This document shows, piece after piece, positions 1-64,000 of a stretch of 64,000 bases of DNA. Positions within the stretch are counted from its first letter, which is position 1, and the number at the start of each line of letters is the position of its first letter. Location: the NCBI GenBank assembly GCA_963761985.1, contig CAVXIT010000001.1, positions 52,003 through 116,002 of the forward strand, in the 5' to 3' direction. The notes under the pieces are model-generated. The model ran no database searches, was not told the origin of the DNA, and saw nothing but the letters and a program-made list of their open reading frames with translations. The stretch is from an uncultured Acidimicrobiia bacterium. Lineage in GTDB: Bacteria > Actinomycetota > Acidimicrobiia > Spongiisociales > ZC4RG35. Both the position numbers and the translations under genes were made by a program.

Positions 1-36
1 CACCCTCACCCCCTTCGAGCGCTAAATAGAAGCCAC

Positions 37-1461
37 TCATTCGGCGGGACCTTGAGGGGTCGGCCGGGTCTCGCTGTCAGCCTGGCGATCGCCCCTCATC
101 CAGGTGATGGCATTGGAGGCATCGGCCAGAGTGCTGAGCTGCTCGGAGCTGAAATGAGCCCTTAGCTCGCTTCTCGCCGCCCAGAGGACGCTGCCTCCAA
201 CCAGAAGCACGACGAGGCCACCCAGCACGATGACTGCTCTGATCCCCTCGTTGAGCTCACCCACGAGGACGCCGTCCAATGTGGCCGCACCTACCCCGGC
301 GAGGGCGAACGAAATCAGAAGAGCCACCCGGGCAAAAGCAAACATGGCGGCAAATGTCCGCCCCCGTAACCGGTCCTCAACGGTGGCGTGCAACTCGGTG
401 AAGCCGCAGACATAGGCCACGCCCGTGCCCAATCCGGTCACAAACGTCCAGGCTGCGGCGCCGGTGACGGTGTTCCTGAATCCGGTGAAGATGATGGCGA
501 GCCCGGTTGCCACGAGGGCGAGGGCAAAGACCAATGGGCGTCGTGTGTTCATCGTGCCGAGGATCGTCATCCCGAGCATGCCGACGCCGACCCCGACGCC
601 GAGCGCCGTCACGATCAACCCATAGCCGGCGTCGGAGGCTCGCAACACTTGTTCGGCAAAAGGCTGACCGATCACGAACAATGCTCCGCCGCCGAATAGG
701 CCGGCCGCCATTCCCAGAATCATTCGGCGAATCGGACCACTCCCGGCCACGAAGCGAAAGCCTTCCATCATGTCTCGCAGCGGCGCTCTGAGGTCGACGC
801 GGCTGCGAGCTTTGCGCTCCTCCGAAAGAGATGCGGACGGTATCGGAGTGAAGAAGACAATCGCCGCCGAGACGAGGAAGGTGACCGAGTTCAAGGCAAA
901 GGCGGCGCCAATCGAGGAGCCGAATGTGCCGAACGGAGGGAGCAGCGAACCGATTTGGGTGAGCCCGGCAAAGAGCGCGGAGCCAATCGGCGCAGTCCCA
1001 TAGTTGGAAAGTAGGGAGAGCCCATTGGCCGCCAGCAGTTGATGCTCAGCGATGAGCGACGGCACAACCGCTTCTCGAGCTGGTTGGCGCATCATCGAGA
1101 GGAGCTCGGTGACGAAGGTGAGCAGGAAGAGCTCACGGAAATTGCTGACGAAGATGAAGCCGATAGCCAGGACCGCCCGCCCAATGTCGGCGACGAGCAT
1201 GGTGGCCTTGCGACTGAACCGATCAGCCAGCACACCCCCCACGAAGCCGAACGCCAGGGCAGGGAGGATCCGGCCCACCAGGGGGACCAGGATGCCGAGG
1301 CTGGCTGCGGATCCTCCGCCAGAAATCCGGGCGGCTAGGGCAAAACTCGCAAAAAGGGCTACCCAATCGCCCAACGATGCGACAGCTTGTGACCACCAAA
1401 GTCGGGCAAACGGCCCTTTTCGGATCAGGTCCCGGCTTCGAAGTTGGAAATCAGATGTCAC
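37..1461 (-). CDS. MFS transporter (GTG start)
   Basis: 474 aa ORF, 12+ TM-like hydrophobic segments, MFS-like N-terminus (LWWSQAVASLGDW...); GTG start verified from reverse complement at 1459-1461. Confidence 0.8.
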   Translation of the reverse strand: MTSDFQLRSRDLIRKGPFARLWWSQAVASLGDWVALFASFALAARISGGGSAASLGILVPLVGRILPALAFGFVGGVLADRFSRKATMLVADIGRAVLAIGFIFVSNFRELFLLTFVTELLSMMRQPAREAVVPSLIAEHQLLAANGLSLLSNYGTAPIGSALFAGLTQIGSLLPPFGTFGSSIGAAFALNSVTFLVSAAIVFFTPIPSASLSEERKARSRVDLRAPLRDMMEGFRFVAGSGPIRRMILGMAAGLFGGGALFVIGQPFAEQVLRASDAGYGLIVTALGVGVGVGMLGMTILGTMNTRRPLVFALALVATGLAIIFTGFRNTVTGAAAWTFVTGLGTGVAYVCGFTELHATVEDRLRGRTFAAMFAFARVALLISFALAGVGAATLDGVLVGELNEGIRAVIVLGGLVVLLVGGSVLWAARSELRAHFSSEQLSTLADASNAITWMRGDRQADSETRPTPQGPAE

Positions 1462-1532
1462 CGGAATGAGGTTTTGAGAGGTTGAATTGACAGTCTCGCC
1501 TAGACGCTAGACAGTGAATTGCCCGTAGATCT

Positions 1533-4161
1533 ATGAAACTCATCATCGTCGAATCGCCGGCCAAGGCCCGCACCATTTCCCGCTTCCTGGGCTCAGGTGT
1601 GGCCGTCGAGGCTTCGATGGGCCATGTCCGAGACCTCGAAACCAAGGGGCTCGGAGTGGATGTGGACGCCGGGTTCGTTCCCTCCTATGTCATTCCTCCG
1701 AACAAACAGGCAGTAATCAAGAAGCTCCGCGAGGCTTTGAAGAAGGCCGACGAGTTGTACCTGGCGACTGATGAGGATCGTGAGGGCGAATCAATCGCCT
1801 GGCATCTAACTCAAGTCCTCAAGCCCAAAGTCAACGTGAAGCGAATGGTGTTTCACGAAATCACCGAGCCGGCGATTCAGGGCGCCTTTGCCTCCCCGCG
1901 GGACATCGATCGCAAGCTCGTCGACGCACAAGAAGCCCGACGAATACTTGACCGGCTCTACGGATACGGAGTGTCGCCAGTGTTGTGGCGGCGAGTAAGA
2001 CAAGGTCTTTCGGCGGGACGGGTGCAAAGTGTGGCGATCCGGATCGTGGTCGAACGAGAGCGCGAGCGGATTGCCTTTGTCACAGCCGGCTATTGGGACC
2101 TCGAGGCCACGCTTGTCAAAGGCGACTCGGCCCCGTTTTCGGCGACGCTGGTGCAACTTGATGGAGCAAGAGTCGCAACCGGCTCCGATTTCGATTCCAG
2201 CGGGAGGATGGCCACCGAGAAAGCCGTAGTTCTTGACGAACCGGCGGCCAGGCAACTATCTGCCGAGCTCGAGAAGTCCGACTTCTCGGTGCGCGACGTC
2301 GAGACCAAGCCTTATCGACGAAGTCCCTATCCCCCGTTCCGCACCTCGACCTTGCAACAAGAGGCAGGCCGCAAGTTCCGCTTTTCCGCTTCCCGCACGA
2401 TGTCGGTCGCGCAGCGACTCTACGAATCGGGATACATCACCTACATGCGCACTGATTCGACCGCGTTGTCCGAATCTGCGGTGGCGGCGGCCCGAGCCCA
2501 AATCGGCTCGCTTTTCGGAGCCGAGTATCTGCCAGAGAAAGCGCGCAGCTATGCCAACAAGGTGAAGAACGCGCAAGAGGCCCACGAGGCGATTCGACCG
2601 GCCGGCGAGACGTTCCGCACTCCCGAGCAAGTCGGCCGGGAAGTGAGCGACGACGAGGCCCGGGTTTATGAGCTCATTTGGAAGCGGACCATGGCGTCGC
2701 AAATGAAGGACGCTCTCGGCGAGTCGATGTCAGTTCGGCTGGGGGCCATCTCTTCGAACGGGGCCGATGCCGAATTTGCAGCCAGTGGCCGCACCATCAC
2801 ATTCCCGGGCTTCCTGCGGGCTTACGTCGAGGGCAGCGACGACCCCGAAGCGGCACTGGACGATCAGGAGACTCCGTTGCCTTCCCTGCGCGAACGGTGA
2901 CGCGCTCGACCTGCAGAGCCTTGAGGCATTGGGTCATAGCACCAAACCGCCCGCTCGCTTCACCGAGGCGTCGCTCGTCCGGCGCCTGGAGGAATTGGGA
3001 GTCGGGCGCCCATCCACCTACGCCTCCATCCTGAGCACGATCAAAGATCGAGGGTATGTCTGGACCAAAGGGCAGGCGCTGGTTCCGACTTTCACTGCGT
3101 TCTCCGTGGTCAGCCTGCTCGAAGAGAATTTCGAGAACCTGGTCGACTACGCCTTCACCGCCCGGATGGAAGACGATCTCGATCGGATCGCAGAGGGAGA
3201 GGAACAAACCGTTCCCTGGCTAACGCGCTTCTACCTCGGACCGGAGGGGTTGCACCAACAAATCGAAGATCGCCTCTCCGAAATCGACGCCCGCGAGATC
3301 AACTCGATTCCGCTGGGGATGGATGAGAACGGACGTCCGGTCGTCATCCGGGTCGGCCGTTATGGCCCTTATCTCGAGCGCGGCGACGACCGGGCGTCGA
3401 TTCCGGACAACCTCCCCCCGGACGAACTCACGATGGAGCGTGCGATCGAGATCCTCGCCGAGCAGCCGGCCGGGGACAAGATCCTCGGCACCGATGCTGA
3501 CAGCGGTTTGGTGGTCATCGCCCGCACCGGCCGCTTCGGACCCTACGTTCAGCTGGGCGAAGCTGAAAACAAGACGAAGCCGAAAACGGCTTCGCTGTTC
3601 AAATCGATGAGTCTCGACTCGATCACACTCGATGAAGCGCTGCAGCTGTTGCAACTCCCTCGAGTGGTGGGCGCCGACCCGGAAAGCGGCAGCGAAATCG
3701 TCGCTCTCAACGGTCGCTATGGACCGTATCTCGACCGGGCCGGCGACACGCGGTCGCTGCCAACCGAAGAAGAGCTCTTCTCGATCACTCTTGATCGGGC
3801 CCTCGAGCTTTTTCGTCAGCCTCCCGCGAGACGCGGGCGCGCAAACGCGACTCCACGCCGGGAGCTGGGCACGACCCCCGAAGGTAAGACCGTTTCGGTC
3901 GGCAACGGTCGCTATGGGCCTTACGTCAGCGACGGCGAGATCAACGCCTCGCTTCGCACCGCCGACGACCCCGATCAGATAGATCTTGATCGAGCCTTGG
4001 AGTTGCTGTCGGCGCGACGCGAACGACTTTCCGACACCACCACGGTTGTGAGAAAATCGCGCGCCAAAAAGGCCGGCACGACCAAGAAGGCCGCTAAGAA
4101 AACGGCGAGCAAGAAGACGTCAGCCACCAAGAAGAAGGCCGTAGCGAAAAAGAAGGCATGA
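1533..4161 (+). CDS. topA: DNA topoisomerase I, split over two frames by a +1 frameshift near 2880-2895; Lys-rich C-terminal tail
   Basis: N-part 1533..2900 (MKLIIVESPAKARTISRFLG, Toprim, catalytic region) and C-part 2767..4161 (FTEASLVRRLEELGVGRPSTYASILSTIKDRGYV) are contiguous TopA sequence but sit in frames 0 and +1; actinobacterial-style KKAxKK tail at the end. Confidence 0.85.
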
Positions 4162-4162
4162 T

Positions 4163-4354
4163 TTGTTCGGCGCATTAAACGGAGTGAGAACGACTCTGGT
4201 GATAGGTGCGATCATCGCCTCCCTCCTGGCCCTGATCCTCGGCTATCCGATCGTGGCCGTAGTGCTGGGGGTTGGGATCGGCGCCCACGCCGCGCTTTGG
4301 GTCTGGCTCTACAAACAACGCCGCGCCACTACTTCCAATCAACTAGGGCAATAG
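4163..4354 (+). CDS. small two-TM membrane protein (hypothetical)
   Basis: 63 aa ORF, two hydrophobic helices, starts 2 bp after topA stop. Confidence 0.4.
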   Translation: MFGALNGVRTTLVIGAIIASLLALILGYPIVAVVLGVGIGAHAALWVWLYKQRRATTSNQLGQ

Positions 4355-5026
4355 CCAACCTTCCGGAGCCCACTGGCCAACGAGGGCCGCGGCCCGCTCG
4401 AAATCGGAGACGGTCGTGACTTTGATGTTGCGATGATCGCCCGCGACCACGCCAATGGTCAGACCGCTCGCTCGAGCGACCGTTTCCGCGGTATCGAAAC
4501 CTGGCTGAACTGATTGCGCGAAGGCTTCGACGAGTTGTACCGCGTTGAAGATCTGCGGCGTTTGAGCTTTTACCACTCCGGAAAGCTCGCGCAGCTGTCC
4601 ATGGGTGTTTCGGAACGTTGGTCCAGGATCGACGACGGGAATCGCTCCGCCCACCAACTCTGCCTTCGCACGACAGGCTTCCCACAGGTCGGCGGTGAGA
4701 AAAGGGCGGGCGCCATCGTGAATGCCGATCAACTCTCCGTCCTTGCATTTGATGGCGGCCAGGCCGGCCTTCTCGCTCTGATATCGCGTCGCTCCTCCCA
4801 GAACCACCTTCGGGTTCAGGTCGGCGAAGCTGACGAGCAACTGATCGAGTAGTGGTCGGTCCTCTTTCCTGGCCACCACCACCAGACGGACCGGGTGGTT
4901 GAAGGCTCTGATGGCTTGCAGCGAATAGGAAAGTAAAGGGGCGCTATTCAGGCTGCGGTACACCTTGTTCGGTCCCTCCCCCGCCCGCTCCCCCCTCCCG
5001 CCGGCGAGGAGGATCAGCGAGTCCAT
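4343..5026 (-). CDS. ispD: 2-C-methyl-D-erythritol 4-phosphate cytidylyltransferase
   Basis: LLAGGRGERAGEGPNKVYRSLNSAPLLSYSL motif typical of IspD; ORF extends to 5092 but the internal ATG at ~5026 (MDSLILLAGG) is the likely start. Confidence 0.8.
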   Translation of the reverse strand: MDSLILLAGGRGERAGEGPNKVYRSLNSAPLLSYSLQAIRAFNHPVRLVVVARKEDRPLLDQLLVSFADLNPKVVLGGATRYQSEKAGLAAIKCKDGELIGIHDGARPFLTADLWEACRAKAELVGGAIPVVDPGPTFRNTHGQLRELSGVVKAQTPQIFNAVQLVEAFAQSVQPGFDTAETVARASGLTIGVVAGDHRNIKVTTVSDFERAAALVGQWAPEGWLLP

Positions 5027-5030
5027 GACG

Positions 5031-6390
5031 TCACAGGATCGTGGCGGCCATTTCGGAGAGCGGAGAGCGGACCGAGCGCTCGAGGGTGACATGGCCGAAA
5101 AGCGATGAACCCTTGAACTTCTCGATCAGTGCCGCTGCTCCGCCAAACGGCGAGATATAAGGATTGTCGATCTGGGTGAGGTCACCGCAGAAGATCACTT
5201 TCGAGTCGCGGGCCATGCGGGTGAGGATGACCTTCAAAGTGGGCAGCTCGAGGTTTTGCGCTTCGTCGATGATCACGATCTCGCCGGTGATCGAGCGCCC
5301 CCGCAGATATGTGATCGCCGCCATTTCCAATTCATCCCGGGCCAGGAGGCCCTCGATCGCGTCGCGAGCGCCTTCCGCGCCGGCGTCGGAAAACAGGGCA
5401 TAAAGGTTGTCGTGGACCGCGGCCATCCACGGAGCGAGTTTCTCCGACAGGTCGCCCGGGAGATAGCCGACTTCCTGTCGGCCAACCGGAACGAGCGGTC
5501 GATAGACCGTGACCTTCCGATAACGACCCATCTCCACCACTTGTTCAAGTGCCGCGGCAAGGGCGAGAAACGTCTTGCCGGTGCCAGCGATGCCCATCAG
5601 CGAAACCGCCGGCAACGCCGGGTCCATCAGGAGGTGCAGGGCAACGGTCTGTCGGATGTTCTTGGGCTCGACGCCGAAGACCTTGAGCCCGTGGCTGGCT
5701 CGTTCGACCACGGTCTCGGGTTCGGTCTCGATCACACGGGCCAGGGCCGACTGGGAGCCGGCCCGGAGCACGACAAACTCGTTAAGCAGAAATCGACTGT
5801 CGGAAAGGGTGAGTTTGTTCTCGACATAGATGCGGTCGATGACTGCGGGCTCCACCTGCATCTCGTGAACTCCCGAGTGGAGTTCTTCGACCGGGAACCG
5901 TATCCCCGCGGTAGTCCTGAACCTCGACTCCTAGCTGCGCGGCCTTGATGCGGAGCGCGACGTCTTTGGTCACGAGGACCGGATGGTCGCCGGCATCGAC
6001 GAGGTTCAGACAACACGCCAGCAAACGATGATCCGGTGTCGATGGATCTAGCACGACTGGAAGGCGATCGGAAGCGATCCCGTTGAGCTCGATTCGGAGA
6101 GTGCCGCCGGCCGGAAGCGCCACCGGCTCGCGCATTCCTTCCGACCGCGAAGCTCCGAGCTGCTCCAGCAAACGGAGAGCCGCACGCGAGTTGGTGCCGA
6201 CTTCGTCGAGCCGCGCCTTCTTTCGATCCAGCTCTTCGACCACCACCATGGGCAGGACGATTTCGTTTTCGTTGAAACGCAACAGGGCGTTGGGGTCGGC
6301 CAGCAGCACGCAGGTGTCGAGAACGTAGCTCAACGATTCTCCTTGGAAAGGACTACTCAACAGGTTCACCGTACCGGCGGTCCATAACAA
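5031..6390 (-). CDS. phoH: PIN-domain/PhoH-like ATPase (PhoH2), split by a +1 frameshift near 5880-5895
   Basis: PIN part 5782..6390 (SYVLDTCVLLADPNALL...VVEELD) and PhoH part 5031..5861 (GIAGTGKTFLALAAAL, IIDEAQN, KVIFCGDLTQID) overlap in different frames; manual retranslation shows a one-base excess near cccGgtcgaa. Confidence 0.8.
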
Positions 6391-6399
6391 GCTAGGGAA

Positions 6400-6999
6400 T
6401 TACGAGTCGGCAGAACCACAAAGAGTGGCCCACTCGGGCGACGGCCACGGGCGAAACTGATTGCGCACCGCCCGCAGCCCGACCGCGGCCACCTTTACGC
6501 CAACTACGCGCGGATTGAGCTTGTGAATGTGGACTTCTCTCGCCTTCAAAGGGTTGCGGTGCAAGATCACGGCAGTGGGGATGGCGAAGAGTCCGCGTAT
6601 CGGTTCAGCCGGATAAACAAGGAGAACCGAGCCGGAGGGTTTGACCACACGAGCCATTTCGGCCAGCGCGGCATCGACATCGGGAATGTGCTCGATGGCG
6701 TGAAACGAAACCACCGCGTCGAAGGTGTTCGATTCGAACTGGAGCTCGGTCGCCGACATGGTTTGCACGTGCGGCACGATCGCGACCTTTGCGGCGTTGG
6801 GATTCAAGTCGATTCCTTCTGCGTCGACGCCAAGATCACGCAAGGCGCCAACGAGATGACCGCGGCCACAGCCGACATCGAGCACACGGGCGTTCGGCTT
6901 TGGTCTCACCCAATCGCGGATCAGGTGGAGGTTGCGTGGGTTCCAACGGTTGATCAGCGCATAGCGGCGTGAGTCGTAGCCACTTTCGGTCTGAGCCAT
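6400..6999 (-). CDS. class I SAM-dependent methyltransferase
   Basis: VLDVGCGRGHLVGAL glycine-rich SAM motif, 199 aa. Confidence 0.75.
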   Translation of the reverse strand: MAQTESGYDSRRYALINRWNPRNLHLIRDWVRPKPNARVLDVGCGRGHLVGALRDLGVDAEGIDLNPNAAKVAIVPHVQTMSATELQFESNTFDAVVSFHAIEHIPDVDAALAEMARVVKPSGSVLLVYPAEPIRGLFAIPTAVILHRNPLKAREVHIHKLNPRVVGVKVAAVGLRAVRNQFRPWPSPEWATLCGSADS

Positions 7000-7001
7000 C
7001 T

Positions 7002-8960
7002 CTAAAGGACCCCGACCAATGCCATCACCGCCCCGATCGTGATCATCGCCTTGATGGCGGAGCTCAGCGCCGGGCCGACCGCGTCTTTCAAGGGGTCCCC
7101 CGCGCTGTCGCCGATCAACGTGGCCCGGTGCTGGTCGGAACCGGCTCCGCCGAAGGCACCTGCCTCAACGAGGTTGTTCGCCGAGCTCCAGACCCCACCC
7201 GTGTTGACAAAGAACGTGGTCTGGATGAATCCCGTCAAGATCACAGCCACCAGGAACCCACCCAGGGTCTCGGGATTGGCGATCCCCAGGACCACGGGCA
7301 ACCCGAGAACCAAAACCCCCATTGAGAGCATCTCGCGTCGCGCCCGACCCGACACCAGATCGAGCAGCCCGGGCAGTCCCGCCCCACCCAACCGGACGGT
7401 GTCGATAACCAACGCCGCAGACCGCCCCACCGCGTTCAAGTTGAGTGCTGAGAAGACAAAAGGAAAAGTGATACCCAACAAAACCCCAAAGAGCCCCGGC
7501 ACGCGGGTCAGGTCGATGGCGTCGAGCCCGGAAACTTCGAGGAAGACGAGGAGCATTACGAGTGCCCCGCCGAGCGCACTGGCGGTTGCGTAACCCCGGC
7601 TGCTCGACGTCGCCGCATTGCCCACCGCAGTCAGACCAGCCACTGCGCTATCGAGCTGCTCGGTTTGTTCGTTGAGTGCCAGCACCCCGTGCCCGCTATC
7701 GGCGATCGGCCCGAAGGCGCCAATAGAGGCCCGGATCGCCAGGATGACCGAGGCGCCCGCTGCTGCCAGTAACAGGCCAAGCCGGCCGCCCGCTTCGTTC
7801 CAGGCCCAGGTCCCCGCCAGGTAGGCGCCCACAAAGCATGCAGCGAGCGCGCCAGCTGAGAAGGCCGCCGCTCGCATGCCCGCGACGATTCCTCCAATGA
7901 CGAGCGTGGACGGGCCGATTTGGCTCTGGCGAGCGATCTCTTTCACGGTCTTGTAGTGATCGGAGGTAAACCACTCGGCGACAAAACCGGCTCCCCACGC
8001 CGCGGCCGTACCGGCCGCGAGGGCGAGAAGCAACCCGAAGGGATGCGTGACCTCGGGACCGGCCATCGTTTCCAGTAGCCACCAGGCTCCGCCGATGATC
8101 ACTGCCACCGAGATGAGGGTGGCCAGGAGGAATCCGGTCACCGGGTTGTCACGACCAAAGCGAATCACAAAGACTGCCGGCAGGGCACCGAGGAGACCGC
8201 ACGCGGCAATGCCCAGGAGGACGTGCTCGAACCAAGCCGATTCCGGACCGACAATGAGCGCACCCAGAACCAGCCCTCCGAAAACAGACATGACAAATGA
8301 GTCGCCGAGGTCGGTGGTTGCTCCCACGACGCCCCCAAGGACGTCGCCCGCGCTGTCGGCGATCACTGCCGGATCGGGGGCAGATTCAGACGATCTCACG
8401 AGGTCAGCGCCAATGTCGGCCGCCTTGTTGTAGACGCCGTTGCCGATGCGCGTGAACAGGGCGACGACGGCGAAACCGAGGATCCCGTAGGCGAGCTGGA
8501 GGGGCTGGATCGCGGTGACTCCGATGAGAAGTGCGACAAGGACCACAACCGCGGCACCGATGCCGACGACCAAGCCGCCTCGCAGGGCCAGCTGCATCGA
8601 TCGCACTGCCCCACCCTGTCGCGCCGCCTCTCCCAGGCGAACGTTCACTTCAGTCGCCCCGGCCGCCGACATCCAGATCACCAGGGCAGCCGCGGCCACT
8701 CCTGTGGCATAGATCGAGACTTCGATCCAGCCGCGACCCGAATACCAGAACAGCGCTCCGCCCAAGACGACGACGGGCACCACGATGAGCCGCATCTGTC
8801 TCCGGAGATGCTCTGCCACCTGGTAGCCGATCTCCCGGGCGGCTCCGCTCAACTCACCCGTGCCCGAAGCCCGGATCTGGCCGTTGAAGTAGACGACAAC
8901 CACGGCGGCCAGCAGCGCGAGACCGCTTGCAAAGAGGACGACTTCGTTCACCGGCGCGAC
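7002..8960 (-). CDS. hppA: membrane-bound proton-translocating pyrophosphatase
   Basis: 673 aa polytopic ORF with the H+-PPase signature GDSAGDPLKDAVGPALSSAIKAM and NKAADIGADLV; ORF nominally extends to 9023, overlapping the polX 3' end, so the true start is probably an internal GTG. Confidence 0.85.
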   Translation of the reverse strand, partial: VAPVNEVVLFASGLALLAAVVVVYFNGQIRASGTGELSGAAREIGYQVAEHLRRQMRLIVVPVVVLGGALFWYSGRGWIEVSIYATGVAAAALVIWMSAAGATEVNVRLGEAARQGGAVRSMQLALRGGLVVGIGAAVVVLVALLIGVTAIQPLQLAYGILGFAVVALFTRIGNGVYNKAADIGADLVRSSESAPDPAVIADSAGDVLGGVVGATTDLGDSFVMSVFGGLVLGALIVGPESAWFEHVLLGIAACGLLGALPAVFVIRFGRDNPVTGFLLATLISVAVIIGGAWWLLETMAGPEVTHPFGLLLALAAGTAAAWGAGFVAEWFTSDHYKTVKEIARQSQIGPSTLVIGGIVAGMRAAAFSAGALAACFVGAYLAGTWAWNEAGGRLGLLLAAAGASVILAIRASIGAFGPIADSGHGVLALNEQTEQLDSAVAGLTAVGNAATSSSRGYATASALGGALVMLLVFLEVSGLDAIDLTRVPGLFGVLLGITFPFVFSALNLNAVGRSAALVIDTVRLGGAGLPGLLDLVSGRARREMLSMGVLVLGLPVVLGIANPETLGGFLVAVILTGFIQTTFFVNTGGVWSSANNLVEAGAFGGAGSDQHRATLIGDSAGDPLKDAVGPALSSAIKAMITIGAVMALVGVL

Positions 8961-10675
8961 CGGGCGAAGTCGAGAAACTGCTTCGTGTCCAGGGTGTTGG
9001 CCACATTCGCCGCCGCCGCCCAACCGCGTTGCGCATTGGCAACTCCAAACACCATCCGCGTGAGGTCGGACGTGTGATGGGAATCGGTGGAGATCACCAG
9101 AGTCACGCCGGCGGCCACGGCTCGTTTGGTCACCTCGGCCGAAGCGTCGAGCCGGTCAAGGGCGCCGTTCAACTCGAGGGCAACTCCGGAAACCGAGAGT
9201 CCCTCGAGCACCGCATCGAGGTCAAGTTCAATCCCCGGCCGGCGACCGATGTAGCGCCCGGTGAGATGTCCGATGGCGTTGACCGCCGGGTCCGCCATCG
9301 CCTTGAGCAGGCGCGTGGTTTGGGCTTCGGCGGAGAGGTCGAAATGCGAATGGACCGACGCCACCGTCCAGTCGAAAAGAAGGCGGAATTCTGGGTCGTA
9401 GTCGAGCGTCCCATTGGGTCCGATGTTGAGCTCGCACCCGAAAAGCAGAGTCATTTCGGGGTACTTCGCGTTGACCGTTCGAATCCGCTCCCGGTGCGCC
9501 AGCATTTGATCACGGCTCGATCCGTTGATCGCCAGGTCCTCGCCATGCTCGGTTATGGCCAGATACGAATAGCCACGGCCCGCGGCCGCCTCCACCATCT
9601 CCTCGAGGCTTGAGCGGCCGTCGCCCGACTGATCGGAATGGAAGTGGAGATCGCCTTTGATCTGCTCCAGGGCCACTAGCTCGGGCAAGGTGCCATTTGC
9701 CGCGGCTTCGATTTCTCCCTGGTTCTCGCGGATCGACGGTGGCAGATAGGGCAGCTCAAGCAGTTCGTAGATATCAGCTTCCGAGCGAGCTGCCAGCAAT
9801 TCCTCGCCGGCAAAGAGTCCGTATTCGTTGAGCAGCCAGCCGCGATCGATCGCCCGCTGGCGGAGAGCGACATTGTGTGCCTTTGAGCCCGTGAAGTAGA
9901 GAAGAGCCGCGCCGAGTTGCTCGGGGGCAACTGCGCGGACGTCGACTTGCAATCCCGAACGGGTCAGAATCGAGGTCTTGGTCTCGCCCGATCCGACCAC
10001 CTCGGTCGCGGCCGGATGATTTGCTACCGCGCTCATCACCGGCTGGGCTTGACTGGCAGCAACCACGATGTCGATGTCGCCGATCGTCTCTGCGAGACGT
10101 CGCAAAGATCCGGCGGGGATCGCGGACTCCACTCCCTCGATGGCGGCGAGCTCAGTTGCCAACCCGGCGGCGACCGGCATCGCCTCGGCAATGGGAGTCC
10201 TCCGATCCTTACCGTGCAGACCGAGACGGTCGATCGACCGGGCGATCTTCTCTTCCGTGGTTCGGCCGAGGCCGGGCAGCTCACGAAGTGCCTGCCGATC
10301 GATGGCGGCTTTCAGGTCGTCGAGGTTTTCAATCCCGAGTTCGGCTCGGATGAGCTTCAGCGTTTTGGGACCGAGCCCTGGGACCTTGAGCAGCTCGACT
10401 AGGGCAGGGGGATACTTCGTCCGCAGTTCCTCGAGCTTGGCCACGCTTCCGGTTTCGACATACTCCATGACCCGCTTGGCAATCGAGCCTCCCACGCCCT
10501 TGATCGCTTCCATGTCCTTCACGCTCAGCGTGGCGACGTTGCCCGGGTACCCCTCGATGCCATGGATGGCGTTCTCATACGCCCTGACTTTGAAGGCTTG
10601 GCTGGAGCCCTCGTCGAGCGCTATGAGCTTGGCCATCTCGGCAAGGACACCGAGAATCCTGGCATTGGAGATCAC
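8948..10675 (-). CDS. DNA polymerase X family protein with C-terminal PHP domain
   Basis: N-terminal HhH/pol-beta-like region; PHP motif [10 protein letters not shown]; 575 aa. Confidence 0.85.
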
Positions 10676-10752
10676 GAGCGAACGTTACGCCGCAAAGCTG
10701 CACCCTTGGATAGCAGCCCTTTATATTTGGGGCCGGTCGGTACCCTTCAGGC

Positions 10753-12714
10753 GTGACCTCGCGCTCGACGCCCGAAAAGAAGCCCCAAGTAAAACCGCCT
10801 GGCTGGAAGGTGGAAGGTGTCCCTCCCGTTGAGGACGACAAAAGCCAGCCAATCAATCCATTGCGACGGGCACCTAACCGCCGGGTCCTCATCCTCGCCC
10901 TCGCACTGCTCGCCGCGAACTGGTTCCTGACGTCACTCCTTTTCACTCCCACCCGACTCGAACTGTCGTACACCGAGTTTCTCGACGCCGTGGAAACCGA
11001 AAAGGTGGAGACCGTCTTCTCGCAGGGGGACACGATCCAGGGGCGCTTCCTCGCCCCCCAAGAGAACCCTGACGATGCCAATGAGACTGCTGATTTGTTC
11101 TCGACGGTCAGGCCGAGCTGGGCCGACGACAACCTCGTCGAGACTTTGCGGGACAACAACGTCGAGATTTCGGCGGTCGATCCCGAGCAACGCCCTATCT
11201 GGCAGCAACTCCTCTTCGGTTTCGGACCGACACTGCTTCTCATCTGGATCTTTGTGGCCATGTGGCGTCGGGCCGGCTCGGCCCTCGGGGGCATCGGTGG
11301 TCTGGGCAAGAGCAGGGCCAAGCGCTTCGAAGCCAGCACCCAGCGGACGACTTTTGACGATGTCGCCGGAATCGACGACGCCAAGGCCGAACTGACCGAG
11401 ATCGTCGACTTCCTCAAGAATCCCGGCAAGTACACCCGGTTGGGCGGGGCGATCCCCAAGGGAGTCCTGCTCTCGGGCCCTCCCGGCACAGGAAAGACCT
11501 TGCTGGCCAGGGCAGTGGCGGGTGAAGCCAACGTGCCCTTCTTTTCGATGTCGGCCTCAGAATTCATCGAAATGGTCGTCGGCGTGGGAGCAAGCCGGGT
11601 TCGTGACCTTTTCGAGGAAGCGAAGAAGGTTGCTCCGGCGATCATCTTCATCGACGAGCTCGACGCGATCGGCCGGACCCGCGGAGGCGGCGTCTCCCTC
11701 GGCGGGCACGACGAACGCGAACAGACCCTCAACCAAATTCTCACCGAGATGGACGGATTCACCGGATCTGAAGGCGTCATCGTCATCGCCGCCACCAACC
11801 GGCCCGAGGTCCTCGATTCGGCTCTGATTCGACCCGGTCGCTTTGACCGCCAGGTCGCGGTGAGCCCTCCCGATCAGCGAGGACGCCTCTACATCCTCAT
11901 GATCCACACCCGCAATGTGCCTCTAAACGCTGACGCTGATCTCTCCTCGATCGCTTCGTCCACTCCTGGAATGGTCGGAGCCGATCTGCGCAACCTGGTC
12001 AACGAGGCGGCACTGATGGCCGCTCGTCGCAACCACGACGACGTAACGATGGCCGACTTTGCCGACGCGCTGGAGAAGATCGTGCTGGGGACCGAGCGTC
12101 AGATCATGATGTCGGATGCGGAGAAAGAACGGACGGCCTTTCACGAGGCGGGCCATGCCCTCCTCGGAATGCTGCTGCCTGGTGCCGACCCGGTCCGAAA
12201 GATCTCGATCATTCCCCGCGGCCGCGCCCTCGGTGTCACCTTCCAGTCCCCCGATGCCGACCGCTACGCCTACGACCGCGGCTACCTCGAAGGGCGAATT
12301 GTTGGAGCATTGGGTGGCCGTGCCGCCGAAGAGGTCGTGTTCGGCACGATCACCACTGGTGCCGAGAACGATCTGGTCCAGGTGACGAGGATCGCCCGAT
12401 CGATGGTTGGGAAATGGGGCATGTCCGACGTCATCGGGCCAATCACGGTCATCGATGAGAACCGGGAAGCATTCATGCGACCCGAGGTGGGCGAGAAGAC
12501 CCAGGAACTCATGGACGACGAGGTTCGCCGGATCGTCGATGAGTGCTACCAGCGCGCCGTGAACGTGCTCAAGGAACACCGCACTCAGCTCGATGCGATT
12601 GCCGCCGCTTTGCTCGATAAGGAAACGCTTGACGAAGCGGAGGCCTATCAAGTCGCAGGCATTACTCGGACCGACGACAAGATGGACGAGAAGCTGGAAA
12701 CGCTCTCGAGCTAA
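10753..12714 (+). CDS. ftsH: ATP-dependent zinc metalloprotease FtsH
   Basis: N-terminal TM segments, AAA Walker [26 protein letters not shown] zinc site, 653 aa. Confidence 0.9.
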
Positions 12715-12722
12715 TCGCTTCT

Positions 12723-14954
12723 GTGCAGGACTGGGACCCAACTCAGCTGATCAGCGAGTGGGCTGAGCAACACGACGGCGAGCTGGTTGAGGTTCGAACC
12801 ATCCCCGCCCGCGAGGCACGATTTGGCTCCGTCGAACTCGACCCCTTCGTTGCCTCCCGGTTGGCAGAGCGCGGAGTGGAGCGGCTGTACCTGCATCAGG
12901 CCCAGGCAATCGACTCGATTCGCGCCGGACGTCACACAGTGCTTTCGGTGGGAACTGCCAGCGGCAAGTCGCTCGCCTTCCAGGTTCCGATCATGGAGTC
13001 GCTCCACGAGGACCCCAAGCGGTCGGCGCTTTTGCTCTATCCGACCAAGGCTCTAGCGCAGGATCAAGCGCGTTCGTTGCGCTCGTTCCGGATTCCGACG
13101 ATCAGCGCGGCGATCTACGACGGCGACACCCCGATCGAGAGCCGCACCGAAATCAGGCGTCGGTCCAATGTTGTCCTCACCAACCCCGACATGCTCCACG
13201 TCGGCATCCTTCCGTCGCACGATCGTTGGAGCGATTTCCTCCATCGGCTGCGATTTGTGGTCGTAGATGAGGTGCACAACCTGCGTGGCGTGTTTGGCAC
13301 TCACGTCGCCTTCATCCTTCGTCGCCTGCGCCGCCTCTGCGAGCACTACGGCTCGTCGCCTACTTTTATCTTTGCTTCGGCCACCATCGGCAATGCCGCC
13401 GAGCTGGCCTCGAATCTGACAGGTCTCGAGGTGCATCCAATTGCCGCCGACTACTCCCCCACCGGGAACCGCACGTTCGCTCTCTGGAATCCCGGGCTCA
13501 TCGATAGCGACCTCGGTCTCCGTCGCTCGGCTCTATCCGACGCAACCTCGGTCTTCGCGCATCTCGTTGCCAACGATCGGAAGACGATCGCCTTTGCTCG
13601 GGGTCGAAAGTCGACCGAGCTCATGTATCGATGGTCCCAAGGGAGGCTGGCTCGGGAGAAGAACATCGCCGCGTATCGGGGCGGCTACACGCCGGCGCAA
13701 CGGCGAAGCATTGAAGAAAAGCTGTTCGGAGGAGAGCTCGACGGCGTCATCGCCACCAACGCGCTTGAGCTCGGCATCGACGTCGGTGGACTCGATGCGG
13801 CGGTGGTCACCACTTTTCCCGGGACCATGGCGGCCTTCCGCCAACAAGCCGGTCGCGCAGGTCGGAGCCGCCAGGATTCGCTCGTGGTGCTCTCCGCCGG
13901 CGACGACGCTCTCGATCAATATCTGATGCGACATCCACAAGAACTCTTCGACCGTCCCACGGAAGCGGTGGTCGTCAATCCCGCGAACCCGCAACTGGCC
14001 GAAGCCCACGCCGCTTGTGCGGCCTATGAATTGCCGCTCGCTATCGACGATCGGGAGATCCTCGGCCCGGCGATGGAGGAAGCCGCCAATCGACTGGTCC
14101 AAGCCGGACACCTCCGCTTGAAGGACAGCCGGCTCTACTGGGCCCGCCGCCAACGGCCGGCACCTTCCATCGATCTTCGCTCGAGCAGCGGACCGCCTTA
14201 TCAGATCATCGTCCGCAAGGAGCTGTTGGGAACGCTGGACGGGGACCGGGTCAACCGCGACGCCCATCCGGGAGCGATCTATCTCCATCAAGGCGATAGC
14301 TACCTGGTTGAGTCGGTCGATCATGCTCTTCGCGAGGTGCGAGTGTCGGCGGCATCTGTCGATTACTACACCCAAACGAGAGCTGAGACAGACCTCTCCA
14401 TAGTGGACATGGCTGCTCGCTCGCCCGCAGGTCGGCTCGGCGTCTCGATCCATCTCGGAACAGTTGACGTCGAATCGCAGGTGATCGCCTATCAGAAGCG
14501 TTCTTTGAAGACCCGCGAAGTGATCGAAACGATCGATCTGGACGTTCCGCCGACCAGTCTCACGACCTCCGCCATTTGGCTCACCTTCCCCGACCTTGCC
14601 GATCTGGGAGCCGATCTGTTGGGAGCGCTGCACGCCGCCGAACACGCCGGCATCGCCTTGCTCCCCCTGATGGCAGTCTGCGATCGCTGGGACATTGGCG
14701 GTCTGTCGACCAACTTCCACCCCGATACCGGCACCGCCACCATCTTCATCCATGAGGGCTATGAGGGCGGAGCCGGCATCGCCCCGATCGCCTACGAACG
14801 TCACGAGCGCCACTGGAAGGCGACGCGCGATCTAATCGGCGAATGCCCCTGCCTCTCCGGGTGCCCCTCCTGCGTCCAGTCGCCCAAGTGCGGCAACCTG
14901 AACGAACCACTCTCCAAGGCCGGCGCCCTCCGCCTCCTCGACTTGTTTGTCTGA
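12723..14954 (+). CDS. DExH-box helicase with C-terminal DUF1998 Cys4 domain (SftH/MrfA-like)
   Basis: Walker A VGTASGKSLAF, DEVH box (VVDEVHNL), C-terminal CPCLSGCPSCVQSPKCGN; begins 8 bp after ftsH. Confidence 0.85.
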   Translation: MQDWDPTQLISEWAEQHDGELVEVRTIPAREARFGSVELDPFVASRLAERGVERLYLHQAQAIDSIRAGRHTVLSVGTASGKSLAFQVPIMESLHEDPKRSALLLYPTKALAQDQARSLRSFRIPTISAAIYDGDTPIESRTEIRRRSNVVLTNPDMLHVGILPSHDRWSDFLHRLRFVVVDEVHNLRGVFGTHVAFILRRLRRLCEHYGSSPTFIFASATIGNAAELASNLTGLEVHPIAADYSPTGNRTFALWNPGLIDSDLGLRRSALSDATSVFAHLVANDRKTIAFARGRKSTELMYRWSQGRLAREKNIAAYRGGYTPAQRRSIEEKLFGGELDGVIATNALELGIDVGGLDAAVVTTFPGTMAAFRQQAGRAGRSRQDSLVVLSAGDDALDQYLMRHPQELFDRPTEAVVVNPANPQLAEAHAACAAYELPLAIDDREILGPAMEEAANRLVQAGHLRLKDSRLYWARRQRPAPSIDLRSSSGPPYQIIVRKELLGTLDGDRVNRDAHPGAIYLHQGDSYLVESVDHALREVRVSAASVDYYTQTRAETDLSIVDMAARSPAGRLGVSIHLGTVDVESQVIAYQKRSLKTREVIETIDLDVPPTSLTTSAIWLTFPDLADLGADLLGALHAAEHAGIALLPLMAVCDRWDIGGLSTNFHPDTGTATIFIHEGYEGGAGIAPIAYERHERHWKATRDLIGECPCLSGCPSCVQSPKCGNLNEPLSKAGALRLLDLFV

Positions 14955-14978
14955 TTTCTCCCCCCTCCGGGGGAGAAA
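14955..14978. terminator. GC-rich hairpin (10-bp stem tttctccccc/gggggagaaa, 4-nt loop) between convergent helicase and tadE-like genes
   Basis: perfect inverted repeat seen directly in sequence immediately after the helicase stop; no U-tract. Confidence 0.45.
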
Positions 14979-14984
14979 CCAAAC

Positions 14985-15350
14985 CTAGGGGGCGAATTCG
15001 GCGCGACTGGTGGCTTCGACGATCACTTCGCCTACCAGGACCACGCGGGTGGCGACCTGCACCTCTACCTCGACTGCACGCGGATCGAAGTTGTCAACAG
15101 TTGGACAGAGGCAGCCGACGATGACGGCACCGTTGGCCGCGGCCAACTCGCTGGCCGCAGCGAGAGGCGACTGCTCTGCGATCGGTGGAAAAGTCATCGG
15201 CGCGGCAGCCAAAGCAGCGGCGTCGGCGGCGAGCACCGCCCGCGTCCGCGCCGCGACTATCTGGGCAGCTGCCACCACAGCCAGACCAACCGCGATGATG
15301 ACGAGCATCAGGGCAAGAGCCAGAACCGTTGCCGACCCTCGCTCTCTCAC
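14985..15350 (-). CDS. TadE-like protein (Rv3654c 'helicase/secretion neighbourhood' family)
   Basis: 121 aa, N-terminal hydrophobic pseudopilin-like segment (TVLALALMLVIIAVGLAVV); conserved position between helicase and tad genes. Confidence 0.65.
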   Translation of the reverse strand: MRERGSATVLALALMLVIIAVGLAVVAAAQIVAARTRAVLAADAAALAAAPMTFPPIAEQSPLAAASELAAANGAVIVGCLCPTVDNFDPRAVEVEVQVATRVVLVGEVIVEATSRAEFAP

Positions 15351-15679
15351 TGTTCAACTCGCATCGTTGCCCGGCCCGACAGCTCAACCGTGTACCAGCG
15401 CAAGATCGGCGTAACCAGCTGATGACGCAGCCGAATCGTGACGGTGGCAGGTCGACCAACCACTGCAGGTCTAGTCACCGTGACGCCGACTCTCGTCGCC
15501 ATCTCGGTTGAAAGCGCCGAGGTCGCTGCCACGACTGCCGCTTCCGGATTGGGACTGGTGGCGGCAACACGCGCGCCTTCGCGTGCTGCCGCCACCAGGT
15601 CAATCTGGATTCGAGCGACGACCACGATCTCCAGCACAGCCAGGAGGACGAGGATCAGAGTTGGGATCGTCAGGGCCAT
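15347..15679 (-). CDS. TadE/TadG-like pilus assembly protein
   Basis: GTVALEMALTIPTLILVLLAVLEIV TadE N-terminal motif; ORF nominally extends to 15964 over the flp gene; start uncertain. Confidence 0.6.
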   Translation of the reverse strand: MALTIPTLILVLLAVLEIVVVARIQIDLVAAAREGARVAATSPNPEAAVVAATSALSTEMATRVGVTVTRPAVVGRPATVTIRLRHQLVTPILRWYTVELSGRATMRVEQ

Positions 15680-15702
15680 CTCGAGCGCCACAGTTCCCTT
15701 CT

Positions 15703-15903
15703 CTAGAACTGACTGGCCACCCAACCCACGACCTTGCCCAGGATGGTGCTGATGATCGAGGTCCCTCCGCTCGACTGCACCCACTTGAAGAGAATCACGG
15801 CCAGAGCAGTCGCGGCAAGGATCACGAGGAAATACTCCACCGTTCCTTGCCCCCGTTCGTCGCGATTGGCGCGTTCTAGCCACCGTTTCCACAAAGCCAG
15901 CAT
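15703..15903 (-). CDS. flp: Flp family type IVb pilin
   Basis: 66 aa; prepilin processing motif G/TVEYFLVILAATALAV after a short leader. Confidence 0.75.
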   Translation of the reverse strand: MLALWKRWLERANRDERGQGTVEYFLVILAATALAVILFKWVQSSGGTSIISTILGKVVGWVASQF

Positions 15904-15960
15904 GACCGGCTCCTTTCGATTGCTTCCGGCGACCGGCCGGAGCGGGGGGAAGCGAATCGT

Positions 15961-16551
15961 TCACGGAAGCGAACCCTGCAGGTCGGTCAACGAGCCCAGG
16001 AGGACTGGCCCTACAAACAAAAGGACAAAGCCCGGAAGGATCAAAAGCCCGAGCGGGATCATCAACGTGACGGGAAGCCGGCGGGCCTTTTCGATTGCCC
16101 TGGTTCGACGTTCCATGCGCAGCTCGGCGAGGTAGGACGCCACCGCGTCAAGCATCGGAGCGCCGGACGCGGCGGCGCGGGCGAGGCGGGTGAGAAGCGA
16201 GTTGGTGTGCGGGCCGGTCCAGCGAGAGAGAGCCTGCGCAATCCCTTCTCGACGCGCCCGTCTGATCAAGAGGGTCAACTCTGCCGCGACTGCTCCGGTC
16301 GATCGCTCAGCCGCCAGCTGCAAGGTCGCCAAAAGAGGCAGCCCCGCGGCGAGGCCGACGAGAACGATGCGCGCCGCGAGGGCCTGTTGCTCAGGAACGA
16401 AATCGACAGGGCGGCGTCGCCGAAGGCTCGCCGGGAATCCGATGGCGACAACTACCAGAAGGAGAGGATGGAAAATGAACAAGGCCGCGGACGCCGCGGA
16501 GAGGAGCGGACGATCAACCGGTCGGCTCCAATTAACGCGAGTGCTGTTCAC
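15961..16551 (-). CDS. tadC: type II secretion system F family protein (TadC-like)
   Basis: 196 aa polytopic protein, 4-bp start/stop overlaps with neighbours, position in tad locus. Confidence 0.7.
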   Translation of the reverse strand: MNSTRVNWSRPVDRPLLSAASAALFIFHPLLLVVVAIGFPASLRRRRPVDFVPEQQALAARIVLVGLAAGLPLLATLQLAAERSTGAVAAELTLLIRRARREGIAQALSRWTGPHTNSLLTRLARAAASGAPMLDAVASYLAELRMERRTRAIEKARRLPVTLMIPLGLLILPGFVLLFVGPVLLGSLTDLQGSLP

Positions 16552-62718: not shown

Positions 62719-63959
62719 GCACTTCTCCGCTGCTCGAGGTCCTCTTCGTAAGCCCGCAGAATTCGGGCATATCCGGGCGTCGTCGCCAACAACTCCTCGT
62801 GGGTGCCCTGCGCCGCGACTTCGCCGTCTTCGACATATACAACGCGGTCGGCGAGCATGATCGAGGCCCGTCGATAGGCGACGATGACCAGGGTGGCCGG
62901 CAGATCCGCGCGTGTGAGCTTGCGGAGAATGTTCGCCTCGACCGACGGATCGACTGCCGAAGTGGCATCGTCGAGCAGCAACAAGCGAGGCTTGCGAACC
63001 AGGGCACGAGCCAGGGCGATTCGCTGTTGTTGGCCCCCTGACAGCGATGTGCCGCGCTCACCGAGGCGGGTGTCGTAGCCACGCGGGAGCGCACTGATGA
63101 AGCCGTGGGCGCCTGCGAGCCGAGCGGCTTCCTCGATTTCCGCCAAGGGGATATCCGCCCCCAGATCGATGTTGCCCCGCACGGTGTCGTCGAAGAGGAA
63201 GGCGTTTTGGGCGACGTAGGACACTTCTTGCGGCAACTCGGAGCGTCCGAACTGACGGAGATCTCGTCCATCGAGGGTGATACTCCCCGTTTCGGGGTCC
63301 CAGAGCCTGGCGAGGAGGAGAACCAGAGTGGTCTTACCCGAGCCGGTGGCGCCGACGATGGCGACGGTCGTGCCTTCAGGCGCCTCGAGGTTTACACCGC
63401 GCAGCACCGGGACCTCGCCACCGTAAGAGAAGGCGACTTCTTCGCCCGCCAGCGCTGCCCCGGATCGATCGCTCGTGGCGCTGAGTTCCCCGTATTTGAC
63501 GAAGTCGTCGGCGACCAGAACATCTTGCACGCGCTCCCACCCCGCCAGGCTGGAGGCCATCTCCCAAATGACATACCCGACCAGGCGAACCGGCACGGCC
63601 GACAGAGCGAAGAGATAGGCAACGCTGATCATCTGTCCGGGAGTGACGGCACCGTTCCCAATGCGAATTGCGCCGAGGACAATGAGCAGGATGGCGGCGA
63701 GCTGAGGAATGCTGTCGGCGATCGTTCGGAAGAAGGCGAACTTGCGCCCGAGCCTCACGTATTCGTCTGCCAGGTTTCCGGCCGCGCGGTCGAAGCGAGC
63801 GGTCTCACTGGCTTCCCGCCCAAGAGCCTTGACGGTGAGCGCGCCGTCGAAACTCTCGTGAGCGACGTCGCTGACCACTCCGCGCAGATATTGGATTTTC
63901 TCGAAGCCCGAAAACGCGCTCCAGCTCCCCGTCATCTCCGTGTAGACGATGGCGAACAC
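62715..63959 (-). CDS. ABC transporter ATP-binding/permease protein, partner half (N-terminus beyond window end)
   Basis: GATGSGKTT, LSGGQQQR, LLLLDDATSAVD; 4-bp overlap with the downstream ABC gene. Confidence 0.85.
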   Translation of the reverse strand: MFAIVYTEMTGSWSAFSGFEKIQYLRGVVSDVAHESFDGALTVKALGREASETARFDRAAGNLADEYVRLGRKFAFFRTIADSIPQLAAILLIVLGAIRIGNGAVTPGQMISVAYLFALSAVPVRLVGYVIWEMASSLAGWERVQDVLVADDFVKYGELSATSDRSGAALAGEEVAFSYGGEVPVLRGVNLEAPEGTTVAIVGATGSGKTTLVLLLARLWDPETGSITLDGRDLRQFGRSELPQEVSYVAQNAFLFDDTVRGNIDLGADIPLAEIEEAARLAGAHGFISALPRGYDTRLGERGTSLSGGQQQRIALARALVRKPRLLLLDDATSAVDPSVEANILRKLTRADLPATLVIVAYRRASIMLADRVVYVEDGEVAAQGTHEELLATTPGYARILRAYEEDLEQRRSA

Positions 63960-64000
63960 CGCCGCGATCGTCAGCAGCCCCAGCCAGAGGTCGATCGAAA

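Follow-up and report, generated by a model that had tools for sequence, protein, structure and literature searches.

Whether single-base frame disruptions in an assembled bacterial genome are mutations of the organism or errors of its consensus sequence is a question raised in acute form by the 64,000-nt stretch of Acidimicrobiia DNA analysed here (the window), in which topA is among the genes affected. We regard the disruptions as very probably consensus errors of a Nanopore-only, Flye/Medaka-type Acidimicrobiia MAG and not mutations, the platform being judged from the sister assemblies; on this reading their importance is for data quality rather than biology.

By themselves, GC3 and codon-usage frame plots were too noisy at 62% G+C for frameshifts to be called, and we turned instead to pairwise alignments with relatives, in which the codon phase of the substitutions was followed. 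The nearest relative is the GTDB representative MFD05747.bin.2.23 (∼95% identical), and a search of genome contigs with the cvnA reading frame (26914-29388) as the query returned one relative. Two long-read assemblies served for comparison, a documented Nanopore-only Microflora Danica MAG (L001/L004) and contig B (L002, L008 and L006), which is 99–99.5% identical to the window; for L002/L006, the pipeline was judged from the contig naming and a neighbouring ERZ accession. MFD MAGs are built from Nanopore reads alone with Flye, followed by one round of Medaka polishing (PMC12313526). The short-read relative, in which no gene is broken and which is 92–93% identical to the window overall, is represented by L005 (MEGAHIT contig k141_1823510, 93.3% identical) and by L003, a contig from the same assembly that covers window positions 6575-18793. 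L009 is a Logan contig.

Inventory and distribution of the frame-breaking indels

Base-level comparison with the relatives located 17–19 frame-breaking indels in the window. Fourteen are +1 insertions (at 2889, 5896, 25877, 32546, 32834, 36303, 37435, 37573, 37576, 38039, 38959, 38989, 39090 and 39145), three are −1 deletions (at 27253 in cvnA, 39167 in the macro gene and 51202 in the DUF3237 gene), and two further frame changes lie in a secreted-protein gene, near 37490 and 37555. At the disrupted genes, Pfam divided single families over two overlapping ORFs. Together, the two approaches confirmed every gene that the sequence-only reading had named as disrupted, and where, although the gene that it called DUF3224-like is DUF3237 by Pfam. 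Its statement that nearly all of the changes are +1 and a few −1 therefore holds as well.

An indel-free stretch extends from 5898 to 24440 and contains the ispD-side spacer, hppA, polX, ftsH, a helicase, tad genes and valS, which bears out the earlier description of a clean region (no frame-breaking indel from 5.9 to 24.4 kb). Compared with the short-read contig L003 (window 6575-18793), zero frame-breaking indels were found within genes, the indels being located in spacers or measuring 3 nt. Gene lengths in the clean stretch equal or nearly equal those of the relative (743 and 575 aa in both, 653 versus 652 aa; for hppA, the called start is the sole difference). All indels between positions 5898 and 24440 that were detected against L001, L008 and L004 disrupt the frame of the relative, and from 16.6 to 24.4 kb those against L001 and L008 never break that of the window. 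The window has spacer indels, also located by comparison with relatives, at 24478 (−1), 24508 (−2) and 25005 (−1), so that the affected zone begins near 24.5 kb; the extra bases at the first two sites are present in both L001 and L008, and the base at 25005 is present in L001 and L009, with L008 the same as the window. Two other apparent frameshifts, at 29811 and 29987, were discounted, since neither site distinguishes L008 from the window: the EVE-domain gene (29497-29949) is separate and intact, and the following sensor kinase begins near 29990.

The events are over-dispersed (index 3.3, a value reached in 0 of 20,000 simulations), which is driven by 11 events in 36–40 kb. When one event per gene is counted, dispersion has a p-value of 0.03 and the 20-kb gap one of 0.26. 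The 36–40 kb pile-up is significant and the 19-kb clean stretch by itself is not, and the gap was dropped as stand-alone evidence. The case made from clustering against uniform error is thus only half right, since clustering itself is normal in these assemblies and the clean stretch alone is non-significant.

Lesions in individual genes

The topA gene (1533-4161, forward strand) carries an extra C (CTG[C]GCGAAC, within 2886-2893) followed by a stop codon at 2898-2900. Pfam splits its Topoisom_bac profile between residues 2-294 in one ORF (1533-2900) and 299-407 in the next (2767-4161). Over 6.4 kb of alignment with L005 (window 3-6432) there are exactly two gaps, both +1 in the window, one at topA 2889 and the other at phoH2 5891; in L005 the two genes are intact at 875 and 452 aa. 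The topA lesion is the same in the window and in L002, and is not found in L005. L004 has the same extra C and then a −1 change six nt downstream that restores the frame. At 2889, the window reads CTGCGCGAACGG, the in-frame L005 reads CTG-GCGAACGG and the in-frame L004 reads CTGCGCGA-CGG. The alleles contrasted at this site are CTGGCGAAC and CTGCGCGAC, and a real frameshift would be expected to give CTGCGCGAAC. In phoH2 (PIN-PhoH, reverse strand), the inserted base (GGG[A]ACC, 5891-5897) is specific to the window, with none in L002, L004 or L005, and the L002 gene is intact at 445 aa; Pfam places PIN_4 in 5782-6390 and PhoH in 5031-5861.

Two conservon genes on the reverse strand are affected. 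The conservon GTPase gene cvnD has a +1 insertion at 25877-25878 that is common to the window and L008. Against GAC[TC]GCG in the window, L001 shows C and L009 shows T in place of the bracketed bases. L007 and L009 encode a protein of 195 aa, and that of the window and L008 has 211 aa; the Pfam match to ATP_bind_1 is cut at residue 135. The sensor kinase-like gene cvnA has a −1 deletion at 27253-27255, where L008 is −2, and over residues 724-790 the L001 protein aligns with window frame −1 at 98.5% identity. In L009, the cvnD insertion is absent and the base missing from the window cvnA is present. In a membrane-protein gene on the same strand, comparison with relatives gave two +1 insertions, at 32546-32549 and at 32834-32835, the second being the site of a −1 change in L008. 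A 397-aa stop-to-stop ORF of L001 (392 aa as called in L007) falls in window frames −1, −2 and −3.

Most of the remaining events lie in a block of accessory genes at 35.4-39.4 kb. Comparison with relatives and Pfam place a +1 insertion at 36303 in a DUF222-HNH endonuclease gene (forward strand), with DUF222 in ORF 35532-36308 and HNH in ORF 36292-36705. The gene is one inserted base apart from an intact L007 orthologue (391 aa as called), and in its DUF222 5′ part the third codon position accounts for 77 of 127 mismatches, a clear bias; the gene (35449-36736) is absent from contig B. The secreted-protein gene (∼290 aa, ∼36725-37600, reverse strand) has at least three and probably five frame changes within its first ∼50 codons (37435-37576). 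Those at 37435, 37573 and 37576 are window-only, and the other two are common with L008. Homologues are 285–294 aa long, P0217 and P0215 align by tblastn to window frames −3, −1 and −2, and every out-of-frame piece still matches the intact ∼290-aa homologues. The shifts sum to a multiple of 3, and the gene is broken in three of three long-read assemblies. An N-terminally anchored Thr/Pro-rich protein (37850-38229, reverse strand) has a +1 at 38039 that is common to the window and L001 and absent in L008. Additional shifts affecting this protein, whose sites are ambiguous, occur in the 37.44–37.93 kb segment, which is hypervariable across the three assemblies. In the macro-domain gene (∼38545-39342, forward strand), five indels fall within 210 bp (38959-39167), +1 at 38959, 38989, 39090 and 39145 and −1 at 39167, so that the net change is +3 and the original frame is regained. 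Codon phase of substitutions is constant in L001 and changes five times in the window; the Pfam match is limited to profile positions 1-24, and the L001 ORF is intact. Further along, the DUF3237 gene (reverse strand) has a −1 deletion at 51202 (CATCC[G]CGCGAG). The Pfam match covers profile positions 2-86 of 149, and a 118-aa protein of L006 maps to window frames −2 and then −1.

Error pattern in the sister assemblies

The long-read relatives carry comparable lesions at other places. In L001/L004, valS carries six surplus bases and the gene at 25015-25650 three, and hppA, phoH2, ispD and polX are also broken; in L002/L006, sucA contains ∼35 bases too many, and both ftsH and polX are in fragments. 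Wherever these assemblies are broken, codon phase in the window is constant. Their error spectrum comprises 103 single-base insertions and 25 deletions (∼4:1). Nanopore consensus errors are not usually described as insertion-biased outside homopolymers, a point that counts against the artefact reading. Homopolymer slippage was rejected as a source, the inserted base repeating a neighbouring one in 37 of the 103 insertions (36%, against ∼46% estimated by chance). A shared sequence context at the insertion sites, such as a methylation motif, had been raised by the sequence-only reading as something to look for, and no k-mer survived correction for 512 tests. The best was CGCGA at the window sites (4 of 16, p = 7.6e-4) and CGCGC at those of the relatives (10 of 128, p = 5e-4), and motif-linked basecalling error was therefore rejected too.

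The more the window and contig B diverge locally, the more frame-breaking indels lie between them (Spearman 0.58, p = 2e-6); with divergence from the short-read contigs, none arose. Contig B contains a patch (9.75–12.5 kb) that is only 86–90% identical to every other sequence, within a contig 99% identical to the window. At 2889 and 25877, and in two shifts of the secreted-protein gene, the window and contig B have the same lesion, which is found neither in the L001/L004 form nor in the short-read contigs. At 27253 and 32834, both differ in length, and differently, from the in-frame L001.

A possible source of such errors is that the contigs are mosaics assembled from a mixed strain population. 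Thin read support, or two mixed haplotypes, could then lead the polisher to retain extra bases, and at some sites both variant alleles might be kept, giving a ‘union’ sequence that is one base too long. Such a model would account for the +1 bias, the clustering and the hits in essential genes, as well as for trouble at the same site in independent assemblies of one population. Read support in the hotspots may accordingly be low or mixed; a near-finished R10.4 consensus requires ∼40-fold coverage (PMC9262707). Judged from the aligned alleles, topA 2889 and cvnD 25877 in the window look like the union of two in-frame haplotypes; the same reading is plausible at 32834 and ambiguous at 32546. As a general mechanism, union of alleles was rejected, because the depletion that it predicts at the codon 1|2 junction is absent: insertions in the relatives are spread over the three codon junctions as 27, 30 and 35, with no preference. 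Most of these insertions are also without an adjacent SNP, which leaves the bulk unexplained by this model, and we retained it for the specific window sites only. Identical frameshifts in two assemblies, as in topA, cvnD and parts of the secreted-protein gene, are also to be expected from real mutation in a shared strain.

Mutation or consensus error

The sequence-only reading had proposed a mixture of consensus errors and genuine decay, the latter affecting accessory genes at 35.4-39.4 kb. The first half of this proposal is strongly supported: in collinear alignments the indels are absent from independent short-read assemblies of close relatives (L005, L003 and L009), and the sister long-read contigs, presumably products of the same pipeline, are broken elsewhere, essential genes included (valS, hppA, polX, ftsH and sucA). 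For the second half, no positive support was found in that interval. We consider it unlikely that any of the indels arose by genuine, recent mutation in this strain, for which this block and the conservon operon would be the candidates. The block is strain-variable, with DUF222-HNH missing in contig B and a hypervariable segment, and the secreted-protein gene is disrupted in all three long-read assemblies; likewise one operon is hit twice, with the cvnD lesion identical and the cvnA site abnormal in two assemblies. However, the out-of-frame segments still match intact homologues residue for residue, whereas a pseudogene would be expected to lose its third-position bias and to gather further disabling lesions. 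The indels in the macro gene and in the secreted-protein gene each restore the frame overall, and DUF222-HNH, the membrane protein, cvnD and the macro gene each have an unbroken orthologue in L001/L007. Moreover, nearly identical assemblies disagree at 27253 and 32834, so at least one of them must be wrong at each site, and like lesions occur in topA in the window and in valS, ftsH and sucA in the sisters, where decay is not credible.

The topA insertion shared by the window and contig B might instead be real and tolerated, either by +1 ribosomal frameshifting near CGG-UGA-C or by the production of two polypeptides (455 and ∼410 aa). Two assemblies that come from separate ENA analyses carry the same lesion, a stop codon lies within 9 nt after it, and the compensating −1 in L004 resembles an evolved repair. 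SNPs between the window and L002 are third-position-biased on both sides of the insertion (13 of 16 at the third position of codons in the local frame; downstream of it 8 of 10, binomial p = 0.003), so both halves are still under purifying selection, with no relaxation through loss of this bias. Yet by eye the site (CGC GAA CGG TGA C) contains no slippery or prfB-like motif and no CUU-U-type site, and short-read assemblies of relatives have an uninterrupted topA of 875 aa. We know of no split or recoded bacterial TopA. That the window is the union of both in-frame alleles fits a consensus artefact, and the shared or co-located errors at 25877, 27253 and 32834 call for the same technical explanation. 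A tolerated frameshift in topA is therefore highly improbable. We give just as little credence to its population-level form, in which the insertion would be a real allele, TopA would be made by +1 recoding or as two polypeptides, and L004 would be an in-frame repair (Ala-Asn to Arg-Asp).

Taken as consensus errors, the disruptions hold no new biology, but they have practical consequences. Many frame-breaking errors in core genes (topA, valS, ftsH, sucA, hppA and polX) are carried by a public MAG and by the nearest GTDB species representative, and pseudogene counts, protein annotation and trees drawn from these records will be misleading. A gene-decay reading of frameshift clusters in such records requires a read check first. 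The pattern itself (insertion-biased, non-homopolymer, in strain-divergent patches and sometimes at recurrent sites) may interest those who build polishers and quality filters for long-read metagenomes.

Compared with known systems, the window resembles bacterial frameshift pseudogenes in that several of the genes hit are accessory and strain-variable (the HNH element, the secreted proteins and the macro-domain gene), but it differs from them in lacking stop-codon substitutions and larger deletions and in retaining similarity throughout. In collapsed-haplotype consensus artefacts, both alleles of a heterozygous or strain-variable site are carried into the consensus, which becomes one base longer. 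This is the appearance of 25877 (TC against C or T) and of 2889 (the union of the L004 and L005 alleles), although the likeness is clear at two of the six window sites with at least two references and the mixed reads behind it are presumed. Residual indels of Nanopore-only (Flye and Medaka) assemblies truncate gene calls, are measured by IDEEL-type tests and are repaired by short-read polishing or proovframe. As in such assemblies, the window's single-base indels split conserved and essential genes into adjacent overlapping ORFs, are absent from short-read relatives and have counterparts in sister contigs of the same naming style and ENA series. Unlike the homopolymer deletions emphasized in published work, the errors here are ∼4:1 insertions, mostly outside homopolymers, clustered in strain-divergent patches and partly at the same sites across independent assemblies.

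Frame-breaking lesions in the window

The window has a G+C content of 62% and contains no Ns. The species-representative genome collection yielded a single match, contig_70001 (L001) of a Microflora Danica MAG titled 'MAG: uncultured Acidimicrobiia bacterium isolate MFD05747.bin.2.23', which shows 91–97% DNA identity to positions 17103–39370; further portions of this contig (L004 and L007; ERZ25039550) were found by protein look-ups. The other relatives were three portions (L002, L006 and L008) of one 2.23-Mb Flye-style contig from the neighbouring ENA analysis ERZ25039588, termed contig B (97.5–99.7% identity), two MEGAHIT (k141_) short-read contigs from ERZ27311206 (L003 and L005; 92–93%) and a 2.9-kb Logan contig (L009; 96%). 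Since a 182,514-bp contig in NCBI and ENA carries the window's exact topA fragment plus two more exact proteins, the frameshifts are present in the public record.

To assign each indel, pairwise alignments were read for the codon phase of their substitutions, the intact genome being that in which third-position phase stays constant across the indel; exact sites were then set by multi-way alignments. Pfam matches showed all named genes to be divided between neighbouring overlapping ORFs. In topA, Toprim and Topoisom_bac positions 2–294 lie in a first ORF (1533–2900), and Topoisom_bac positions 299–407 and four C-terminal repeats in a second (2767–4161). The PIN_4 and PhoH domains of phoH2 fall in 5782–6390 and 5031–5861, respectively, ATP_bind_1 is truncated in cvnD, DUF222 is split from HNH, the macro gene matches only the initial 24 positions of the Macro profile, and the DUF3237 gene covers profile positions 2–86 of 149. 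Extra bases relative to in-frame relatives (+1) were placed at 2889, 5896, 25877, 32546, 32834, 36303, 37435, 37573, 37576, 38039, 38959, 38989, 39090 and 39145, and missing bases (−1) at 27253, 39167 and 51202, with two extra frame changes near 37490 and 37555. The disrupted genes named in a sequence-only reading, its excess of +1 events and its lesion-free middle, ∼6.4–25.6 kb, were all recovered; the sites placed here include fourteen +1 and three −1 lesions. Candidate events at 29811 and 29987 were dropped because 29497–29949 is a separate, intact EVE-domain gene. At 39.4–41.5 kb and beyond 62.6 kb, where there is no relative to align, Pfam matches are full-length.

The clustering of lesions is genuine: the over-dispersion index of 3.3, which reflects 11 events within 36–40 kb, was reached in 0 of 20,000 simulations. 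With one event counted per gene, dispersion gives p = 0.03 and the 20-kb gap p = 0.26; the clean stretch alone is unremarkable.

Several other features were seen. The conservon-type operon (25647–29388, minus strand) is complete, with cvnA (HAMP and HATPase sensor), cvnB (Roadblock/LC7), cvnC (DUF742) and cvnD (GTPase), and the cvnB protein of the window is matched at 100% identity in both of the sister contigs and in two Logan contigs. An unusual fusion, called in L006 as well, joins an N-terminal ClpX-type C4 zinc finger (PF06689, E = 2e-12) to the imidazolonepropionase-type amidohydrolase (42967–44346, minus strand) that clusters with genes of HutH and HutU type. A secreted Thr/Pro-rich protein (24531–25004, plus strand), for which there was no Pfam match, contains a ∼25-aa repeated module (…GVFKNQGDCVSYVATGG), present twice in the window, L008 and L009 and three times in L001, where the third copy is an in-frame 180-nt insertion at window ∼24827.

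Comparison with short-read and long-read relatives

We conclude that the frame disruptions are very probably consensus errors of a long-read metagenome assembly and not a biological feature, in line with the consensus-error part of the mixed explanation offered by the sequence-only reading. Four lines of evidence are offered. In close relatives assembled from short reads the genes are intact: aligned to 3–6432, L005 shows exactly two gaps, each one extra window base, at the topA and phoH2 frameshifts, and L003 shows no frame-breaking indels in genes across 12 kb, with gene lengths equal or near to the window's. Separate error clusters mark the sister long-read contigs at places intact in the window. 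L001 has six single-base insertions in valS (L001 15248–16371) and three extra bases in the adjoining gene; L004 has ∼25 more (12493–19059) over ispD, phoH2, a methyltransferase gene, hppA and polX; in contig B, ftsH and polX are fragmented and sucA has ∼35 extra bases. The error spectrum is alike across relatives and does not look biological, with 103 single-base insertions against 25 deletions, the inserted base copying a neighbour in only 37 of the 103, and sites spread evenly over codon junctions. Finally, frame-breaking indels between window and contig B track local divergence (Spearman 0.58, p = 2e-6), yet the much greater divergence from the short-read contigs gives rise to none. A contig B patch at 9.75–12.5 kb, 86–90% identical to every other sequence although within a contig 99% identical to the window, looks like a jump to another, poorly supported haplotype.

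The topA call of the GTDB species representative MFD05747.bin.2.23 is 690 aa long, owing to a deletion in a C-run (window 1894) together with the loss of 2 nt from the Lys-rich tail (window 4066). In the phoH2–ispD spacer of contig B (L002 13925–13960, window ∼5022–5026), 26-nt and 5-nt insertions with the palindrome CCCCCGGGGG are missing from the window, L004 and L005.

Possible real lesions in topA or the accessory block

Since a genuine shared frameshift in the essential topA would be striking, this gene was examined further. Over 1–4993, the window and L002 differ by 16 SNPs, all inside topA (1533–4161) and none in the 2.4 kb of flanks, which suggests that this topA segment is mosaic or has recombined. 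Of the 16, 13 occupy third codon positions in the local frame, as do 8 of the 10 lying 3′ of the frameshift (p = 0.003); purifying selection has therefore continued to act on the true frame of the downstream half, which fits an artefact and not a dead gene. Inspection of the site sequence revealed no +1 slippery motif, and a real, tolerated topA lesion is very improbable.

The block at 35.4–39.4 kb, for which genuine decay had been proposed, varies between strains. The DUF222-HNH gene (35449–36736), found in the window and L001/L007, is absent from contig B, where ∼21 nt stand in its place (L008), and 37.44–37.93 kb is hypervariable. However, DUF222-HNH differs from an intact orthologue by a single inserted base, with divergence in its 5′ part biased to third positions; the five indels of the macro gene lie within 210 bp and have a net of +3; and out-of-frame pieces of the secreted-protein gene keep matching intact homologues of 285–294 aa. 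Judged on these alignments, the lesions do not look like decay, and that proposal is unsupported, although one of them may, with low probability, be real. The presence/absence polymorphism of DUF222-HNH is typical of a mobile HNH element. At 37436–37930, ∼0.5 kb between two secreted/anchored protein genes, the window, L001 and L008 are far more divergent than in the well-conserved flanks, which may be either true diversification or a mixture of strains that was poorly resolved.

Recurrent sites and the probable cause of the lesions

At the sites of four window lesions contig B is abnormal too: 2889 and 25877 carry the same lesion in the two sequences, 27253 is −1 in the window and −2 in contig B, and 32834 is +1 and −1, respectively. 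This recurrence is beyond chance and implies that such sites either are systematically difficult or truly vary. The bases at 25877 are TC in the window, C in L001 and T in L009; at 2889 the window reads CTGCGCGAACGG, against CTG-GCGAACGG in the in-frame L005 and CTGCGCGA-CGG in the in-frame L004. At both sites the window thus appears to be the union of the two alleles, as if a mixed read population had been resolved by retaining both variants. Such a union suits some sites only and leaves most insertions in relatives unexplained; thin or mixed read support is the more likely general cause. A shared motif, for example for methylation, had been suggested as a check, and no 5-mer was significant after correction for 512 tests (the top 5-mers were CGCGA, at 4 of 16 window sites, and CGCGC, at 10 of 128 sites in relatives).

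The lesions are of low interest except as a caution over the quality of these public MAGs. The pipeline behind the nearest relative was Nanopore-only, with Flye and one Medaka round (PMC12313526), and R10.4 consensus reportedly requires ∼40-fold coverage (PMC9262707).
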